DNA of 64,000 nucleotides from Bacteroidota bacterium (GCA_048498695.1 JBEHXM010000001.1:19940-83939), one strand, 5' to 3'. Shown: positions 31,986-60,358, counted from the stretch's first letter. Numbers and translations are program-made. Notes: generated from the sequence alone by a model not told the origin.

Positions 31986-34229
31986 CTAGAAGAATAGACT
32001 GAATTTCAGTTTTGCAAAGAATGGTGTCCCTGGGGTAATGCTAACACCGTCAACGGGTGTTGCTTCGCTTCTCAACTTAGTTTCTTCCTCTACTGAATAT
32101 TCATCCCACTTAGTATTCAGCAAATTTTCAATGGAGAGACCGATCTCATAGCGTTTTTTCGTATAGTTAATAGCAAAGTCGGTTACATAATAGCCCCTTG
32201 CCTTGAGTGAGTAATCGTTATTTGCAGGGCGGTCGGTCATGCAGCGATAACTTAATCCGCCGTTGATGCCATTTTTCAATTTGAAGTCCAGTCCGCCCGT
32301 GCTGGTAAAGGTTGGCGCCAGTGCTACATATCCCTGGCCCTTCAGGCTATCCAGCAGGCGGGGCTTAGCGATATTCACGTTAAGCCTGCCATATAGCCAA
32401 TCGGTAAACTGGTAACGTGCAGTAAAATCTGCACCAATTCGCCGGGTCTGGCCTCCAGGCTCAACACCTCCGTCATCCGTAAACACAAATTCCTGGTGGA
32501 GGTAGAGGTACCAAAGGGCCATATTGATATATAACTTTGGCAAAGGTTTCCAATTTACGCCGAGGTCCGTGCCATAGGCAGAAGGCAAGGTTTGCAAACC
32601 GTTTTGATAGATCACCGCCCGGGTGTCGTTTGAATGAAATCCTTTTCCTGTTTTTAAATAGAACTGAAGTGACGGATCTGCGGTGAATTCGATGTTCAGT
32701 TTGGGGCTAAAGATAACGTTGCTGATCGAAGGGACAGAGGCGTCGAGCTTGTTGTCGTAATTGAAACGGAAATAATCAACTCGGGTTCCTGCATTGAACA
32801 CCCATTTCCCATATTCAATGCTTTCATCGATAAAGCCATTAATATTGTTCTCTAAAATATTGCCCAGCTGATCCACTGACAGCACATTATTTTGTGGGTC
32901 TACATGATCAAGTTCGGAATTGTTTGTCCGGTCGAGCCTCAGCCCAAGGCCTGCGGCAGAAGTTAAAGATGCGTTCGACCAATCGTTCCGGTGGCTAAAC
33001 CGGCCGTTGTAACCAAACAGATTTCTTGCTTCCCGTTGCTTTACAGCGTCACCATTCAGGCTATCCTCTGCGAAGAATGTACTGTTAACCCGCAAACGAA
33101 AATTATACCGGCTGTAGTAGATTTGATTTTCCAGCGAGTTGCCGTCTTTCAGATCAGTAGTTAGCCGGGCAATGATATTGGCCCTGTTTGAGCTGCCACC
33201 TTGCAGGCTGTCTATCGTGGCGAAACGGTTGAGGCTCCCATTGTCAATTAACCGAACCGGGATCTCGCCTGAAGCGCGCCAGTTGGTATTAAAATAGGAA
33301 GCTATGAAGGTGAATTTGTTGGCAGAATCCAGCATGATATTATATTTCCCGAACACGTTCACGCGTTTATAATGTTCAGCGAATTGAAAGGGGCCGTCTG
33401 TATAATTATACTCACCTGCTATATAGGCGTTTTGACCTTTTGCGCTGTTTCTTTCGTTCAACAAATTGATCATGGCCATTTCACGATGGGTATTGAACTG
33501 CCCTGCTTCCAGGCGTATCATGCTGTTGGTCAATGCATTTTTTGTCTGATAATTCACATAGCCGGCTGTGGTAAAGTCACCATAATTTGTATAATAAGGG
33601 CCCTTGCCAAAATCGTAGCCGGACACGGTTTCGGGGATCAGGTAATGCATATCTGCATATCCCTGGCCGTGAATGTGTGACACCATATTTACGGGCAGTC
33701 CATCGATGGAAATGTTTACGTCGGTGCCGTGGTCGGCATCAAATCCTCTCAGGAATATCTGTTCTGCTTTTCCTCCTCCCATGTGCTGGGCGATGAACAA
33801 ACCGGGTACCAGGCGCAGCAAGTCCTGCGATGAGTTGACCGGCCTCAAATTGAGATCGAGTTTGCAGATGGTATTGAAACAACAAGTGTTTAATTGCGGT
33901 GCAATTCTTACTTCCCTTAGATTGATGGAAGCAGGAGATAGTGCAAAAGTCATCCCGTTGCAGCATGACCTGGCACATACTTCCTGCGTCGCATATCCGA
34001 GGTAGGTGACCGTTATCATGGATGAATCTGAAGGTACCAGGATTTTGAAAATGCCAAACTTGTCCGTGCCGGAACTTCTTCCGGAAGACCTGGCGGTAAT
34101 GGTTGCAAACTCAATGGGCTGATGGGTAGCGGAGTCAATGACTTTTCCGCTGATTATTTTTTGTGCGTTGCTGATTTCTGAAAGGAGCAGCAGCGAACTA
34201 AACAAAAGTATTTTTTTAATAATAGACAT
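31986..34229 (-). CDS. TonB-dependent receptor (non-SusC; probable metal/cofactor substrate)
   Basis: Signal peptide, carboxypeptidase-like N-domain, plug QHMGGGKAEQIFLRGFDADHGTD, ENLLN, C-terminal F. Confidence 0.9.
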   Translation of the reverse strand: MSIIKKILLFSSLLLLSEISNAQKIISGKVIDSATHQPIEFATITARSSGRSSGTDKFGIFKILVPSDSSMITVTYLGYATQEVCARSCCNGMTFALSPASINLREVRIAPQLNTCCFNTICKLDLNLRPVNSSQDLLRLVPGLFIAQHMGGGKAEQIFLRGFDADHGTDVNISIDGLPVNMVSHIHGQGYADMHYLIPETVSGYDFGKGPYYTNYGDFTTAGYVNYQTKNALTNSMIRLEAGQFNTHREMAMINLLNERNSAKGQNAYIAGEYNYTDGPFQFAEHYKRVNVFGKYNIMLDSANKFTFIASYFNTNWRASGEIPVRLIDNGSLNRFATIDSLQGGSSNRANIIARLTTDLKDGNSLENQIYYSRYNFRLRVNSTFFAEDSLNGDAVKQREARNLFGYNGRFSHRNDWSNASLTSAAGLGLRLDRTNNSELDHVDPQNNVLSVDQLGNILENNINGFIDESIEYGKWVFNAGTRVDYFRFNYDNKLDASVPSISNVIFSPKLNIEFTADPSLQFYLKTGKGFHSNDTRAVIYQNGLQTLPSAYGTDLGVNWKPLPKLYINMALWYLYLHQEFVFTDDGGVEPGGQTRRIGADFTARYQFTDWLYGRLNVNIAKPRLLDSLKGQGYVALAPTFTSTGGLDFKLKNGINGGLSYRCMTDRPANNDYSLKARGYYVTDFAINYTKKRYEIGLSIENLLNTKWDEYSVEEETKLRSEATPVDGVSITPGTPFFAKLKFSLFF

Positions 34230-34367
34230 GATATTTTTATTGCATACCGTACCATTTCCAATTCGATATGAGTACGATACCGGGTTAAACTAAAAAGGGA
34301 GGTGCGTTTCCCTCGTTGGAACTGGGTGATAGAACAAAGTTCGATCGGATCAGGAAATAGAGCAGGT

Positions 34368-34736
34368 CTATTGAGGAGGCTGAATAATTCCCGGCGGCGG
34401 CAGATCTAGCAGGCTTGCCAGGTAGGGCGTGGAAATAACTGCCGTCAGGCCCGTATGGAACACGAACCTGTAAATGGGTTCGACTATACTTTCCTGGATA
34501 TTATCCTGTTGGCTTTCCCGGCTTTCCTTTTTTCCCTTTTCTTCGGCTTGCCTGATCTTCTTCATCAGGTAACATTTTCCATTGCAGTGTATCCAGGGTT
34601 TATTCTTGTTTTCGCAAAAGGAAGCGGTGATATATTTTTGATTAACCTTAAACGCAGCGCAAATGAAGTACCTGGAACAGTTCGAAACTGTCAGCGTAAT
34701 CAGAAGCATAAAAGCGATCATTCGGTTAAACATCAT
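34368..34736 (-). CDS. Cys-motif hypothetical protein (C-x9-CNGKC; ends IIQPPQ), candidate leader of the TonB receptor
   Basis: 122-aa ORF with hydrophobic N-terminus, FCENKNKPWIHCNGKCYL, Pro-rich C-terminus. Confidence 0.75.
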   Translation of the reverse strand: MMFNRMIAFMLLITLTVSNCSRYFICAAFKVNQKYITASFCENKNKPWIHCNGKCYLMKKIRQAEEKGKKESRESQQDNIQESIVEPIYRFVFHTGLTAVISTPYLASLLDLPPPGIIQPPQ

Positions 34737-34755: not shown

Positions 34756-34820
34756 CAAATCTACCCCGGCCTGAAAAGTCCTGCCATGAGCATCATCACC
34801 TGTAAAAATGATCTGTATCA
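34756..34820 (-). promoter_or_regulatory. Paired boxes (34787, 34809) + -7 element for the Cys-motif ORF / TBDR
   Basis: TGAGCATCATCA and TGATCTGTATCA; TAGATTTG on the minus strand 23 nt from the proximal box. Confidence 0.7.
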
Positions 34821-34929
34821 GTTTTGACATTTCCTGGTACAAGGGGGAATTTCAATGGATTGAGGGGCATGCAGCGTGGAAATCTCCGATTTCAGGCTTT
34901 CGGTGCCGAACGTCAAACACATTTAAAAA

Positions 34930-34972
34930 TGATTGAGGTCATTTTTAACGGGCAAAGCCGTGCTCAACTTTA
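34930..34972 (+). promoter_or_regulatory. Single box + -7 element for the exporter operon
   Basis: TGATTGAGGTCA at 34930; CAACTTTA at 34965. Confidence 0.6.
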
Positions 34973-35001
34973 CCGCTGTTTAAAATGCAATTGAATTGGA
35001 T

Positions 35002-36099
35002 ATGGTAAACAGGAATTTCAGCATATGCATGGTGACATTATTGTTTGTTGCCTGCAGCAGCAATAATACTTTGCACCCAGTAAGGAAAGATATCGTGGAA
35101 ACGGTATATGCCTCGGGAAAGGTGACAGGCGACGGGGAATACAACCTTTGCAGCCTGGCGGGCGGAACAATTGTCAGGAAACTTGTAAGGGACGGTGATC
35201 ACGTAGCGAAAGGACAGGTGATATATATCATCCGTTCAGAGTCGCCCGCAGCAAAGCTGGATGCCGCTAAAAGCACCTATATAAATGCCAGTGAAAATGC
35301 AGGAGCGCAATCTGCCGTGCTCGATAACCTTAAATTGGACATGCAGAATGCTTCATTGAAGTGCTCGAATGATTCCCTGCAATATATCCGCCTGAAAAAT
35401 TTGTATGATCAGGATATCGGCACCAGGAGCAACCTCGACCTTGCGTATACGACTTACCGGCTTTCCGAAAATCAAAAACGATCTGCCGGAAAAAAGTATT
35501 ATGCTGCCAAAAACGACCTTGCGGTAAGCGCGCAAAATGCAAAGAGCCAGATGGTAGCGGCAAGATCAGACCTTGACAATAATTATATCCGGAGCGAAAA
35601 AGATGGAACGGTTTATCAGACCTTGAGAGAAGAGGGGGATGCAATTCGTCCGGGCGATGCAGTGGCCCTTCTCGGTCCTCAAAACAAGATGATCATACGG
35701 CTTGCTGTCGATCAGCAGGATGTTAACCTGGTGAAAACCGGCCAGCTGGTGCTATTTAAAACCGATGTTACGGGCAATACTATTTACAAAGCCATTGTAA
35801 GGCAAATATACCCGCTGATGAATGAATCTGACCAGACCTTCAGAGTGGATGCCGTTCCTGATGAGGCTTCCGTTCAATCTTTTATTCACTCTTCGGTTGA
35901 AGGCAATATACTCATCCGCAAAAGCAAATCGGCCATTGTAATTCCCCGGTCGGCCTTGCTGGATGGCGATAGTGTGCGGATCGTGCGCAGTGGCAAGACT
36001 TTGCGGGTGCCGGTTCAGACAGGCGTATCCTCCTTGGAAGAGATCGAGATCACGAACGGCATACTGACTTCGGACGAACTAATCATGCCAGCCAAATGA
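35002..36099 (+). CDS. Efflux periplasmic adaptor (HlyD/MacA-like) lipoprotein
   Basis: Lipobox FVAC, VYASGKV, coiled-coil hairpin, IRSEKDGTV. Confidence 0.88.
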   Translation: MVNRNFSICMVTLLFVACSSNNTLHPVRKDIVETVYASGKVTGDGEYNLCSLAGGTIVRKLVRDGDHVAKGQVIYIIRSESPAAKLDAAKSTYINASENAGAQSAVLDNLKLDMQNASLKCSNDSLQYIRLKNLYDQDIGTRSNLDLAYTTYRLSENQKRSAGKKYYAAKNDLAVSAQNAKSQMVAARSDLDNNYIRSEKDGTVYQTLREEGDAIRPGDAVALLGPQNKMIIRLAVDQQDVNLVKTGQLVLFKTDVTGNTIYKAIVRQIYPLMNESDQTFRVDAVPDEASVQSFIHSSVEGNILIRKSKSAIVIPRSALLDGDSVRIVRSGKTLRVPVQTGVSSLEEIEITNGILTSDELIMPAK

Positions 36100-37355
36100 G
36101 CCTTTCTGTCAATTTAAGCATATCGAGGACGCACCTGCTTGCGCGTAAAAAACAGACGATGGTAGCTATGCTTGGCGTAACATTCGGCATCGCCATGTTT
36201 ATCCTGATGATCAGCTTTATGGAAGGCGTGAACCAGTTCTTGCAGGATACTATGCTCTCGTCAACTCCCGATATCCACATCTACAACGACCTGAAAACAG
36301 ACTATACTTCGTCGGTCACGAAGGATTATTTCCGGGACAACAATCAGCTGATCATCGTCCGGCACCCCAAACCAAAGCAGGTTCGCCTTAACCTTAAAAA
36401 CGCGGAAGGGATCATCGCCTCGCTGAAAAGTGACTCCAGGATCACCGCCATCTCACCGGAGCTAAGCACACAGGTTTTCTACAATTACGGCCCGGTGCAA
36501 ATAAATGGGTTCATCGACGGAGTAAACATTATGCAGGAGGCAAGACTATATGATCTGGCAGGAAAAATAACCGAAGGCAAGCTGCAAAACCTGCTGACAA
36601 CAACGAACGGACTGATCATGGGTTCGGGACTTGCCGCCAAACTGAATACCCATACCGGTGACCTCGTCACGTTAACTACCCCTTATGGCAGTACCATGCG
36701 ATTTAGAGTCGTGGGGTTGTTCACTATTGGTATCAGTGCAATTGATGATGTGAAGGGTTACGTTAACCTCACTACGGTCCAGCAGCTGATGGGGAAAGAC
36801 CGCAGCTATATCACGGATATCAATATCAAACTCAACAACAATGAAGCCGCTATCCCCATCGCTATCGCACTCTCGAAAATGACGGGCTATAAGGCTGACG
36901 ACTGGCAAACGGCAAATTCTTCAGTTATGGCGTCCAACCTGATCCGGAACGTGCTCACCTATGTGGTCAGCGTCACTTTGCTGATCGTCGCCGGATTCGG
37001 CATCTACAATATCATGAATATGACCATCGCCAATAAAATGAAGGATATTGCTATCCTGAAAGCGCAGGGATTTGAAAGGAAAGATATCATCGAAATATTC
37101 CTGAGCCAGTCTGTTGTGATTGGAAGCCTTGGGGCTATGCTGGGCATTCTCCTGGGATTTATCTTATCCTATATACTCTCCAGGATGCCCTTCCCGGAAA
37201 GCCAGTTTGTTGCGCTGAAATATTATCCGGTTGTTTTCCGGCCCTTGTATTATCTCTTCGGCTTTTTGTTTGGCGTATCGACCACTTTTCTTGCCGGGCT
37301 AATGCCATCCGTCAAGGCTGCAAAAATTGATCCTGTAATTATATTAAGAGGATAG
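36096..37355 (+). CDS. ABC permease (LolE/FtsX-like)
   Basis: MLGVTFGIAMFI, GFGIYNIMNM, KAAKIDPVIILRG. Confidence 0.88.
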   Translation: MSLSVNLSISRTHLLARKKQTMVAMLGVTFGIAMFILMISFMEGVNQFLQDTMLSSTPDIHIYNDLKTDYTSSVTKDYFRDNNQLIIVRHPKPKQVRLNLKNAEGIIASLKSDSRITAISPELSTQVFYNYGPVQINGFIDGVNIMQEARLYDLAGKITEGKLQNLLTTTNGLIMGSGLAAKLNTHTGDLVTLTTPYGSTMRFRVVGLFTIGISAIDDVKGYVNLTTVQQLMGKDRSYITDINIKLNNNEAAIPIAIALSKMTGYKADDWQTANSSVMASNLIRNVLTYVVSVTLLIVAGFGIYNIMNMTIANKMKDIAILKAQGFERKDIIEIFLSQSVVIGSLGAMLGILLGFILSYILSRMPFPESQFVALKYYPVVFRPLYYLFGFLFGVSTTFLAGLMPSVKAAKIDPVIILRG

Positions 37356-37358
37356 ATC

Positions 37359-38057
37359 ATGATAGAAGTGCTTAGGACCAACGACCTCCAGAAATATTTC
37401 AACGAGCCTGAACCCTTTCACGTGCTGAAGGATATTTCCATAAGCGTAAAAAAGGGAGAACTTGTGACGCTTACCGGGAAATCGGGCAGCGGTAAATCTA
37501 CCTTGTTGTACTTGCTCAGTACGCTGGATACGGACTATACGGGCGAAATCGTCATAAACGGAACAGCAGTGACCGGCCTCGGGCAAAATGAGCTGGCCAG
37601 GTTCAGGAATGAACATATCGGGTTTGTATTCCAATTTCACTTTTTACTGCCTGAATTCACTGTGCTGCAAAACGTGATGCTGCCGGCGCTTAAGCTGAAT
37701 AAATATCCAAAGGCAGAAATAGAACGCAATGCATTAGAAAAACTAAAAAAAATGGGTATGGATGGCTTCGCTGACAAGCTATCGGGCAAACTTTCCGGCG
37801 GGCAGCAGCAGCGCGTGGCAATCGCACGTGCTTTGATCAACGAGCCGACGATCATTATGGCTGATGAACCTACCGGGAACCTGGATAGTGCAAATGGGAA
37901 AAACGTCTTTGAGGTATTCCAGGCAATGGCCCATGAGGATGGTAAAACGATCATTATGGTCACACATGATCCTGATTTCGCACGACTTTCCGACCGGTCC
38001 ATCGAATTGATCGACGGCGGTATCGTGAATAAAAATGCGGCCTTTACAGTCGGTTAA
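37359..38057 (+). CDS. ABC ATP-binding protein (LolD/MacB-like)
   Basis: GKSGSGKST, LSGGQQQRV, ADEPTGNLD. Confidence 0.93.
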   Translation: MIEVLRTNDLQKYFNEPEPFHVLKDISISVKKGELVTLTGKSGSGKSTLLYLLSTLDTDYTGEIVINGTAVTGLGQNELARFRNEHIGFVFQFHFLLPEFTVLQNVMLPALKLNKYPKAEIERNALEKLKKMGMDGFADKLSGKLSGGQQQRVAIARALINEPTIIMADEPTGNLDSANGKNVFEVFQAMAHEDGKTIIMVTHDPDFARLSDRSIELIDGGIVNKNAAFTVG

Positions 38058-50572: not shown

Positions 50573-50668
50573 GCAAGGTAGCCCGGCCAGCTTTGCCAAC
50601 CGATGACCGGGGTCATGCTGATAAATGATTTACATCATGTTTATTTCCGGCCCGGAGAGTTAATATTG
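50573..50668. promoter_or_regulatory. Bidirectional paired-box promoter (50604, 50626) for rrf2 and usp
   Basis: TGACCGGGGTCA and TGATTTACATCA; TACCTTGC (minus) and TAATATTG (plus), each 23 nt from its nearer box. Confidence 0.7.
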
Positions 50669-60293: not shown

Positions 60294-60358
60294 TGCTTTA
60301 GATCATGCCTGGAAATGACTTAAATCATTATTCAAACGGCCCTGATTTTTCAACTTTA
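60294..60358 (+). promoter_or_regulatory. Paired boxes (60294, 60316) + -7 element for usp
   Basis: TGCTTTAGATCA and TGACTTAAATCA; CAACTTTA at 60351. Confidence 0.65.

Follow-up and report, generated by a model that had tools for sequence, protein, structure and literature searches.

CruR (Bp2923) of Bordetella pertussis, a member of the Pfam family DUF2946, is the leader of cruR-bfrG(crtA)-bp2921 (PMC9426467; PMC12914433). The spacing of 45 residues between its cysteines and Pro-Pro is conserved, and the operon partners of its homologues are TBDT, PepSY_TM, MbnPH and Sco genes (PMC9426467). Control of its downstream gene depends on copper, RAPP and Rho, and Rho-dependent termination was shown for this leader (PMC9426467; PMC12914433). 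CutF of Rhodobacter capsulatus controls a multicopper oxidase in Cu-induced detoxification, with a stem-loop over the Shine-Dalgarno site (PMC9973294; bioRxiv 10.1101/2025.02.05.636593), and its model invokes disulfides (bioRxiv 10.1101/2025.02.05.636593). [quoted passage not shown] In the known arrest peptides of the RAPP/RGPP/RAGP type, two Pro codons occupy the P and A sites (PMC10987492, PMC12992588). RAPP/RGPP uORFs before Cu-related genes were reported missing from Bacteroidota in a survey of such arrest peptides (PMC12992588), which leaves this role for another motif.

The DNA analysed here, referred to as the window, is a stretch of 64,000 nt from a Bacteroidota bacterium (GCA_048498695.1 JBEHXM010000001.1:19940-83939). 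It contains a small ORF ahead of a TonB-dependent receptor gene (Table 1), for which the first-pass annotation had suggested a role as Bacteroidota counterpart of CruR. This core idea held in every test that was run. Judged from anatomy, conservation, spacing, gene order, promoter placement and leader folding, there is a reasonable probability that the small ORF is a cis-acting nascent-chain copper sensor, which would form the leader of a copper-acquisition transcript and stall at its Pro-Pro. The closest relative found (L108) shares 91% protein identity.

Table 1. Positions of the features in the window, given in the direction of transcription
Feature	Position	Strand	Remarks
CRP/FNR-like palindrome AAATGA-N6-TCATTT, distal, candidate	34927..34944		sole perfect match in window
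Second CRP/FNR-like palindrome, candidate	34806..34823		1 mismatch; about 80 nt upstream of ATG; kept in L108
-7 promoter box TAGATTTG (Bacteroidota consensus TAnnTTTG)	34756..34763	(-)	ends 19 nt before ATG; identical in L108
Small ORF, 122 aa	34368-34736	(-)	member of an unnamed Bacteroidota family; without Pfam/NCBIfam match
N-terminal hydrophobic anchor/signal, residues about 6-29	34650..34721	(-)	hydrophobicity, charge bias, AlphaFold2 helix
Cysteine triad C41-x9-C51-N-G-K-C55, candidate metal site	34572..34616	(-)	C41, C51, G53 and C55 invariant in 124 members
PPP, residues 113-115, then Gly	34392..34400	(-)	extra polyproline, subclade-specific
Tail I-I-Q-P-P-Q, candidate arrest module	34371..34388	(-)	P120/P121 invariant; C55-P120 spacing 65
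Leader RNA, 138 nt	34230..34367	(-)	small-ORF stop to receptor ATG (34229); three hairpins
Hairpin H0, 7 pairs	34328..34346	(-)	22-40 nt past stop; kept and stronger in L108
Hairpin H1, terminator-like, 6-bp stem then TTTAGTTT	34295..34314	(-)	stem kept in L108, U-run lost
Hairpin H2, 9-bp stem with two G-U pairs, plus inner stem	34244..34280	(-)	ends 14 nt before receptor ATG
TonB-dependent receptor, 747 aa, presumed regulated gene	31986..34229	(-)	Plug and CarboxypepD_reg domains

The small ORF starts with MMFNRMIAFMLLITLTVSNCS, continues with C41-x9-C51-N-G-K-C55 and ends with LPPPGIIQPPQ and TAG. The export-like N-terminus, the Cys motif and the PPQ-stop end previously ascribed to this 122-aa ORF were thus all present. 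The ORF agrees with the rules for CutF-like proteins in its length (122 aa), the position of PP (residues 120-121), its CxxxC (C51-NGK-C55) and its distance of 138 nt to the receptor gene. When the window ORF and 124 relatives were compared with Pfam and NCBIfam, only scattered weak matches at E<=1 and no family model were obtained. The family comprises 3517 representative clusters and was found in 144 of the 401 Bacteroidota genomes sampled and in 69 of 179 genera. Among 124 diverse members, only C41, C51, G53, C55, P120 and P121 were invariant, and residues 29-60 around the cysteines were strongly conserved, far beyond the three Cys. The distance from C55 to PP fell between 64 and 69 residues for 238 of the 249 members, most often at 65 (124 members). 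PP was located 1-5 residues ahead of the stop codon in 222 of 249 members (1 residue in the window copy). The spacer from the charged helix to the tail was variable in sequence and fixed in length. The family tail reads [IV]-[FW]-[HQR]-P-P followed by 1-5 residues, and the QPP-type arrest signal proposed in the first-pass annotation was too narrow to describe it. Besides the window copy, only P0001 has PPP, so that LPPPG is a trait of the window subclade and not of the whole family. The protein features of the small ORF exceed chance.

Structure prediction with AlphaFold2 placed a helix over residues 2-40 and gave a helical hairpin modelled with confidence (mean pLDDT 79), a tail with pLDDT 63-75 and a pTM of 0.41; a compact domain was absent. 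The best 19-residue hydrophobicity had a median of 1.96 over the family members, and the flanks of the anchor carried a charge of +2.35 on the N side and about +0.35 net on the C side. These charges fit an N-in/C-out topology. With the hydrophobic core (1.96) and the positive N flank as proxy, the N-terminus would fit a signal or an N-in/C-out anchor. No conserved cleavage site or lipobox was seen in the family alignment.

The next gene was located on the same strand, 27-700 nt downstream, in 85 of 87 family copies. Receptor linkage and terminal PP of the homologues had been set beforehand as refutation tests; PP was invariant in 124 members, and a TonB receptor was the immediate downstream gene in 65 of the 87 copies. 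MbnP took this place in 9 copies, and most copies without a receptor directly downstream were followed by MbnP/MbnH or SCO1 genes instead. PepSY_TM was the second downstream gene at 29 loci; MbnH, SCO1/SenC and DUF3347 were close by at various loci, and YtkA-like was also among the downstream families. Orthologues of the window receptor (55-59% identical) come after family members at 17 other loci, and the same gene layout was found in other Bacteroidota families. The gap between the small ORF and the next gene had a median of 144 nt, versus 4 nt between the next two genes. The three intact copies in this genome each precede a receptor of their own, and such a single copy in every operon agrees with action in cis; at some loci (L063, L066) two tandem family genes precede one receptor. 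The window locus is located about 4.4 kb from nosZ, and N2O reductase is a multi-copper enzyme. Cys clusters of the window receptor were considered as a copper site and rejected, since they were not kept in the 17 orthologues. Comparison of the receptor with solved structures gave generic plug-domain matches only.

An oxygen-box promoter had been proposed upstream of the small ORF, and two CRP/FNR-like palindromes were indeed present there as candidate boxes by sequence match; within the window, 17 such matches with up to two mismatches were found (8.2 expected). The TAnnTTTG box was present upstream of 73 of 85 family copies, and for 65 of 87 its end was 4-9 nt ahead of the ATG. With 19 nt between box and ATG, the 5' end in the window is unusually long. 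Inside the leader, a TAnnTTTG box was found in only 2 of 85 cases, and the window leader contains none. As nearly all leaders are without their own promoter box, the downstream gene depends on the promoter of the small ORF.

Over its first 80 nt, the window leader contains 31% C and 15% G. Folding of the family leaders against shuffled sequences gave a mean z of -2.2, with 52% below -2, and the controls gave -1.0 (upstream DNA) and -0.18 (coding DNA). Hairpins at the position of H2 were found in 29 of 80 leaders versus 22 of 189 controls. The z-scores of the window hairpins taken singly were -1.6 to -1.8, and by themselves the RNA features of the window are not convincing. All three hairpins were kept in L108, where the 9-bp stem carries three one-sided changes that preserve pairing. 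RNAalifold analysis of nine related Mucilaginibacter leaders returned one 5-bp helix only; the other hairpins of these leaders differ in sequence, were left unaligned by MAFFT and are visible in per-sequence folds. In a DNA-level search of 60 related genomes only the codons of the Cys motif were conserved, which makes leader alignment impossible at genus level. A single leader structure common to the family was not found.

Two earlier claims about the leader stood in part. The weak terminator is present in the window, but it is not family-wide and the nearest relative is without the U-run; as terminator-like hairpins were found in only 18 of 85 leaders, a conserved intrinsic terminator was rejected as the family switch. 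Clean terminator-like examples 6-12 nt past the stop codon were found for the C66 paralogue and at Pedobacter loci. The 9-bp stem was recovered with its two G-U pairs and its end 14 nt before the ATG, but it does not cover the start region. Ahead of the ATG of the downstream gene, positions -15 to -1 contain little G and are comparatively unpaired, and a last hairpin that hides the receptor start codon was therefore rejected. Complementarity between stop region and start region (-7.45 kcal/mol) was modestly above that of mismatched controls (-6.02 kcal/mol). Rho is encoded in this genome; together with the C-rich and G-poor beginning of the leader, this would make a Rho-dependent route feasible.

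Like CruR, the small ORF comes first in its operon and begins with an export signal or anchor, and the distance between its Cys motif and the Pro-Pro close to the stop codon is likewise fixed. Both are followed by a long intergenic leader (162 nt in CruR, 138 nt here). Two of the three copies in this genome form operons in the order small ORF, TonB-dependent transporter and PepSY_TM, and MbnPH and Sco genes are located downstream in relatives; these partners are the ones reported for CruR homologues and for crtA. The two systems differ in the Cys motif (C-x9-C-x3-C here versus CXXC), the tail ([IV]-[FW]-[HQR]-P-P versus RAPP), the spacing (65 versus 45 residues) and the promoter, which abuts the ATG in most members of the small-ORF family; Rho-dependent termination is conjectured here. 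Sequence homology was undetectable, as DUF2946 (PF11162) gave no match with the window ORF at E<=1. It was also absent among the best 25 of 73 families weakly matched by the 124 members, and in a six-frame search of the whole genome the best E was 0.24, located elsewhere, with none over the cut-off.

Like CutF, the small ORF has CxxxC (C51-NGK-C55) and another Cys upstream of it, begins with a hydrophobic segment and has PP among its last 15 residues; in both cases a gene on the same strand lies downstream and the leader is folded. However, the CutF tail is PPP, and the target here is an uptake receptor with a G-poor, relatively unpaired region from -15 to -1. Translation in Bacteroidota is generally considered to begin independently of Shine-Dalgarno pairing.

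A C-terminal x-x-P-P near the stop codon of a small exported or anchored protein upstream of a regulated gene is also found in the RAPP/RGPP/RAGP peptides (ApdA, ApdP, SecM); Arg-Ala/Gly before PP is absent here, and arrest is predicted. DUF6660 (PF20365), a family of uncharacterised Bacteroidota mini-proteins, has an N-terminal anchor, a Cys cluster, a spacer that is variable in sequence and fixed in length (44-49), and a tail of [IV]-W-Q-P-P-[KQR] plus 2-4 residues. Its N-terminal two thirds are unalignable with the small-ORF family, and its cluster is CSPFCxCxCC, in contrast to C-x9-C-x3-C. An hhalign comparison of the two families aligned the last 21 columns only (IFhPP versus IWQPP), with a probability of 55%. 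The DUF6660 Pfam model gave no match at E<=1 in a six-frame search of the genome and was absent among the best 25 of the 73 families weakly matched by the 124 members. The small-ORF family was more widely spread in the sample (144 of 401 genomes versus 31 of 201 for DUF6660). That two families with unalignable N-terminal parts end in the same tail would agree with an arrest module that stands by itself.

If the small ORF is a copper sensor, transcription would start at the -7 box just upstream, and in most relatives at the ATG or within a few bases of it. The N-terminal hydrophobic segment would anchor or export the nascent chain and place C41, C51 and C55 on the periplasmic side. With the ribosome at the invariant Pro-Pro, 65 residues past C55, the triad would be newly out of tunnel and translocon, and Cu binding or disulfide formation at the triad may set the length of the pause at [IV]-[FW/I]-[HQR]-P-P. 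The position of the paused ribosome would then decide the fate of the folded, C-rich 138-nt leader and with it receptor expression, either by Rho-dependent or hairpin-dependent termination, as in CruR, or by opening of a structure, as in CutF. Repression by copper would be the expected output, because the regulated genes form an uptake system. In the proteome of the organism, RAPP/RGPP was found once versus 10.7 expected, a tenfold avoidance. [FW][QHR]PP was found 7 times versus 11.4 expected, a ratio of 0.61 that is close to the 0.62 of [QHR]PP in general; without such special avoidance, the short motif by itself probably does not stall ribosomes strongly. The tail, being neither RAPP nor PPP, also counts against the copper-sensor reading, as do the lack of a leader structure common to the family, the small share of leaders with terminator-like hairpins, the relatively unpaired segment before the downstream ATG, the modest complementarity of stop and start regions and the tandem copies. 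On the present sequence evidence, the small-ORF family, whose build resembles that of the copper-sensing, ribosome-stalling leaders CruR and CutF, probably switches copper-uptake genes on and off.

The lack of special avoidance of the short tail motif would also suit a stable, inner-membrane-anchored periplasmic copper handler, acting as chaperone, thiol reductant or hand-over partner between receptor and PepSY_TM, with F-x-P-P as a structural or docking motif. The strong conservation of residues 29-60, the confident AlphaFold2 hairpin with its moderately confident tail and the tandem copies point in the same direction, and small periplasmic binding proteins are common in copper operons. This role is nevertheless considered rather unlikely, though it keeps some weight. 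The downstream sets (several TonB receptor subfamilies, MbnP/MbnH, and lipoprotein plus SCO1) are without a shared protein and hence without a common docking partner. The gene is almost always the first one and is followed by a leader of about 144 nt, whereas gaps of about 4 nt separate the other genes. Moreover, the 25-35 residues before the tail vary yet have a fixed length, which would be unusual in a folded domain; DUF6660, otherwise unalignable, carries this tail as well; and the model has a pTM of 0.41 and lacks a compact domain.

A leader that acts in cis by arrest may also sense a cue other than copper, such as the periplasmic thiol-disulfide state, export by Sec/YidC or another thiophilic metal. 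SecM, MifM and VemP are arrest leaders that report Sec/YidC export activity. The three invariant cysteines could report disulfide formation, as the CutF model invokes, CutF-like proteins are not all Cu-specific, and the window copy is located under CRP/FNR-like boxes and adjoins anaerobic genes. The downstream families, however, are linked to copper (MbnP/MbnH, SCO1/SenC, PepSY_TM, DUF3347, YtkA-like) and not to Sec, YidC or Dsb, and nosZ is about 4.4 kb away, so that a non-copper cue appears improbable. The low significance of the single hairpins (z of -1.6 to -1.8) would agree with chance or decaying sequence without function as the source of the ORF and the RNA features. This is contradicted by thousands of homologues that share the invariant residues and have kept their length, by the phylum-wide gene order and by three intact copies in the genome; the number of homologues, the invariants and the gene order refute this reading, which is given practically no credence.

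Beyond the window locus, it is tentatively proposed, with less confidence than the copper-sensor role of the small ORF itself, that [IV]-[FW]-[QHR]-P-P-[KQR] plus 1-4 residues and a stop codon may be a Bacteroidota-specific arrest module. It would replace RAPP/RGPP and be attached to at least two unalignable metal-sensing domains, those of the small-ORF family and of DUF6660. Together with leaderless or near-leaderless transcripts, it might constitute a phylum-wide co-transcriptional switch for copper-uptake and metal-transport operons.

Copper uptake in Bacteroidota is poorly understood, and to our knowledge a regulator of the receptor/PepSY_TM and MbnP/MbnH operons has not been described. 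The small-ORF family, present in about one third of the sampled genomes and without a database model, would give these copper operons a candidate regulator. It is also a possible marker of copper-acquisition loci, including one near the copper-dependent N2O reductase. With its invariant residues, its fixed spacer of 65 residues and a promoter that abuts the ATG, the family lends itself to direct tests of the hypothesis. A Pro-Pro tail common to two unalignable families would fill the RAPP/RGPP gap in Bacteroidota (PMC12992588) and, if true, would provide ribosome studies with a new arrest sequence, from a phylum generally held to start translation without Shine-Dalgarno pairing.

The small ORF begins with a hydrophobic N-terminus, followed by C41-x9-C51-N-G-K-C55, a highly charged stretch and a hydrophobic, poorly conserved stretch, and its C-terminal end is LPPPGIIQPPQ-TAG. 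The first-pass annotation had described this ORF, the gap behind it and the hairpins in the gap from the sequence, and these descriptions were all correct. An AlphaFold2 model (mean pLDDT 79, pTM 0.41) placed helices at residues 2-40, a Cys loop at 41-55, a helix over the charged stretch (56-80) and mostly coil in the remainder; no compact domain was predicted beyond the helical hairpin.

Features of the small ORF, its leader and its upstream region
Feature	Position	Strand	Description
Small ORF	34368-34736	-	122 residues
Hairpin H0	34346-34328	-	7 pairs
Hairpin H1	34314-34295	-	6 pairs, then TTTAGTTT; terminator-like
Hairpin H2	34280-34244	-	9-bp stem with two G-U pairs, plus inner stem; ends 14 nt before the ATG
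-7 box TAGATTTG	34756-34763	-	Ends 19 nt before the ATG of the window copy, which is an exception
CRP/FNR-like palindrome	34806-34823		Upstream of the window copy
CRP/FNR-like palindrome	34927-34944		Upstream of the window copy

No match to the small ORF was obtained with the Pfam and NCBIfam models. A word-indexed search returned 61 relatives of 112-131 aa, and an exhaustive HMMER search returned 3517 representative clusters at E<=0.001. A profile was also run against 401 Bacteroidota genomes of high quality, sampled evenly over the phylum. Of these, 144 contained the unnamed family, often in 2-3 copies per genome, and it was represented in 69 of the 179 genera. Conservation was assessed by aligning 124 diverse members, which shared 24-57% identity with the window protein; the sole invariant columns were C41, C51, G53, C55, P120 and P121; N32, I36, N43, P47 and L57 were nearly invariant. 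Among 249 members, the first Pro lay 65 residues beyond the second Cys of CxxxC in 124 and 64-69 residues beyond it in 238, and the sequence of the 25-35 residues preceding the tail was hardly conserved across the family. The C-terminal consensus was [IV]-[FW]-[HQR]-P-P, with 1-5 residues after PP in 222/249 members (commonest 3). The best 19-residue hydrophobicity of the N-terminal segment had a median of 1.96 over the members, and because the net charges of its N and C flanks are +2.35 and about +0.35, an N-in/C-out topology with the cysteines outside the cytoplasm is favoured from the sequences.

A similar tail was found in DUF6660 (PF20365), which was present in 31 of 201 sampled genomes. 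Its members combine an anchor, a CSPFCxCxCC cluster and a sequence-variable spacer with a fixed length of 44-49 residues to PP, and end in IWQPP[KQR] plus 2-4 residues (IWQPP in 19/27). In a profile-profile comparison with the family, the last 21 columns alone aligned (IFhPP versus IWQPP, probability 55%). A portable tail module would fit these data, since the sensing parts cannot be aligned and yet both families have the same tail, the same stop distance and a spacer of fixed length. RAPP/RGPP uORFs ahead of Cu-related genes are reported to be missing in Bacteroidota, and avoidance of these arrest motifs has been reported across phyla (PMC12992588). The window genome agrees, with one RAPP/RGPP occurrence versus 10.7 expected in long ORFs (1.23 million residues), a strong avoidance; [FW][QHR]PP occurred 7 times in its long ORFs versus 11.4 expected and was avoided no more than [QHR]PP generally. 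By analogy with regulated arrest peptides, the tail, if arresting, probably depends on its upstream context or on a signal. Outside the window, contig C64 of the genome (C64:23134-23487, + strand) appears to encode a third small protein with the same build: a 117-aa Cys-rich ORF without a Pfam match has a hydrophobic N-terminus and the tail CWRPPRLLS, a -7 box stops 5 nt short of its ATG, and a small secreted-protein gene lies 62 nt downstream.

Gene order was surveyed for 87 copies, mostly from one order, of which 84 lie in 80 loci of species-representative genomes and three in the window genome; start codons were assigned by rule. A same-strand gene followed 27-700 nt downstream in 85 of the copies; in 65 of the 87 it encoded a TonB-dependent receptor (Pfam check), and in nine MbnP, with an MbnH-type di-haem peroxidase encoded next. 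PepSY_TM was the second downstream gene in 29 copies, DUF3347 occurred as well, and several copies were followed by a lipoprotein gene and SCO1/SenC. Loci of other Bacteroidota families showed the same partners, namely a receptor, a YtkA-like protein plus receptor, or MbnP. These partners point to copper. Each of the three copies in the window genome precedes its own receptor; in the window this is a 747-aa protein with CarboxypepD_reg and Plug domains, whose ATG lies at 34229, 138 nt past the small ORF. A cytochrome c gene that precedes nosZ starts about 4.4 kb from the window copy. By its best matches, the organism belongs to Sphingobacteriaceae, close to Mucilaginibacter.

The window receptor contains seven cysteines, including CARSCC and TCCFNTIC between N-terminal domain and plug (33860-33980, residues about 85-121), none of which is conserved among 17 orthologues 55-59% identical; most family-linked receptors have 0-2 Cys. 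Divergently, upstream of the window copy, an HlyD-type adaptor gene is followed by genes for a MacB-type permease and an ABC ATPase (34996-38057, + strand). At the C4 paralogue, the adaptor and permease genes at least have homologues from the same protein clusters, and the arrangement is listed for own-genome locus L084 and for locus L008; its recurrence may represent an exporter tied to copper acquisition, or mere duplication of the whole locus. In many Mucilaginibacter loci (among others L005, L012, L015, L029, L032, L041, L042, L049, L055 and L071), one or two tandem same-strand genes directly upstream of the family gene encode secreted proteins of about 121 aa (cluster 1, 33 copies) with the consensus ...GKWxG...DGN..PLTY.FK.DG.KLTG... 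and no Pfam match.

A Bacteroidota -7 box (TAnnTTTG) was located within 120 nt upstream of 73/85 copies. It ended 4-9 nt before the ATG in 65/87 copies, so these mRNAs should be leaderless or nearly so. Box density per kb was 7.55 upstream, 0.63 in coding DNA and 0.14 in the leaders, that is, between small ORF and next gene; as only 2 of 85 leaders contained a box, the downstream gene is probably transcribed from the promoter of the small ORF. The gap to the next gene had a median of 144 nt (10th-90th percentile 86-290), and the subsequent operon gap a median of 4 nt. The palindrome AAATGA-N6-TCATTT with up to two mismatches occurred 17 times in the window versus 8.2 expected, a number reached by no shuffle; the sites include both in the table and those at 50623-50640 and 60313-60330, and probably mark a CRP/FNR-family regulon covering the anaerobic genes of the window. 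The earlier view that the window copy is wired into another regulon fits these predicted boxes.

The hairpins of the window leader folded weakly better than shuffles when taken alone (z -1.6 to -1.8). Over 77 leaders of related loci, hence not independent samples, the mean fold z-score was -2.2 with 52% below -2, versus -1.0 for length-matched DNA upstream of the small ORF and -0.18 for coding DNA. With no account taken of relatedness in this or the other cross-locus statistics, a hairpin with six or more pairs ended 10-24 nt before the downstream ATG in 29/80 leaders versus 22/189 control upstream regions. Positions -15 to -1 of the downstream gene were G-poor and relatively unpaired, so the hairpin abuts the start region without covering it. 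Complementarity between stop-codon region and next start region was in modest excess (native -7.45, mismatched pairs -6.02 kcal/mol), with 27% of native pairs within the best tenth. H0, H1 and H2 all persist, with diverged loops, in L108, a soil metagenome contig that carries the closest relative found (91% protein identity), and three one-sided changes in H2 keep pairing through G-U. The weak terminator proposed by the first-pass annotation is present in the window; it is not general, as 18/85 leaders have terminator-like hairpins and the U-run following H1 is lost in L108. Clean terminator-like hairpins 6-12 nt past the stop were found at the C66 paralogue and in a Pedobacter group. At genus level, conservation as DNA was limited to the Cys-motif codons. 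In Mucilaginibacter receptor/PepSY_TM leaders (L014, L019, L035, L039, L040, L044, L047, L058), two shared, short and conserved boxes that are mutually complementary, ACAG(T/C)T and CTGTA, flank two hairpins of species-differing sequence, with a third hairpin near the ATG; this layout is a candidate conserved leader RNA architecture.

The family does not belong to DUF2946/CruR, from which it differs by HMM, CXXC and RAPP, nor to the RAPP-type arrest peptides or DUF6660. None of the 124 members matched DUF2946 or DUF6660 among the families listed at E<=1, and the window genome contained no match to either. The likeness is one of function and layout, in which the family would work like CruR and CutF. 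The small ORF-receptor-PepSY_TM operons at C4 and C66 have the order of cruR-bfrG-bp2921. DUF2946 genes head operons with TBDT, PepSY_TM, ScoC, PCuAC, YcnI, CopC and MbnPH at long intergenic distances (PMC9426467), and crtA is followed by PepSY_TM in >75% and preceded by cruR in >40% of cases (PMC12914433). The small ORF agrees with the CutF-like rules of Öztürk et al. (PMC9973294) wherever these can be checked, and 19% of their 5334 CutF-like proteins are from Bacteroidota, so the family may already be present in that list without a name. No published description was found of the family's cysteine triad, its 65-residue spacer, its ATG-abutting promoter, or the [FW][HQR]PP tail that it has in common with DUF6660.

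The best-supported reading is that the small ORF is a cis-acting translated leader whose nascent chain would report copper or a copper-dependent thiol state, sensed at the periplasmic face, by an altered ribosome dwell time at PP. With a ribosome reading PP, about 65 residues would separate C55 from the peptidyl-transferase centre, which should place the triad just clear of tunnel and translocon. In the main rival reading, which we consider less likely, the small protein would be a stable copper-handling membrane protein; a docking role is argued against by the downstream partners, which have no protein in common. A simple one-leader model is hard to fit to L063 (5484, 6001) and L066 (3674, 4214), where two tandem family genes, each with its own PP tail, precede a single receptor gene.

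Two ways in which the translated leader could be coupled to the downstream gene agree with the data. Under termination control, Rho would load behind the released ribosome, as for CruR; this is plausible for the window because the first 80 nt of the leader contain 31% C and 15% G and Rho is encoded in the genome. In paralogues with a terminator 6-12 nt past the stop, a ribosome positioned at the stop codon would cover part of the 5' arm and a PP-held ribosome would not, so that, by standard ribosome footprint sizes, stalling would favour termination. In the other coupling, the paused ribosome would open leader structure, as for CutF, which the modest stop/start complementarity supports. An uptake system would be expected to be repressed by copper.
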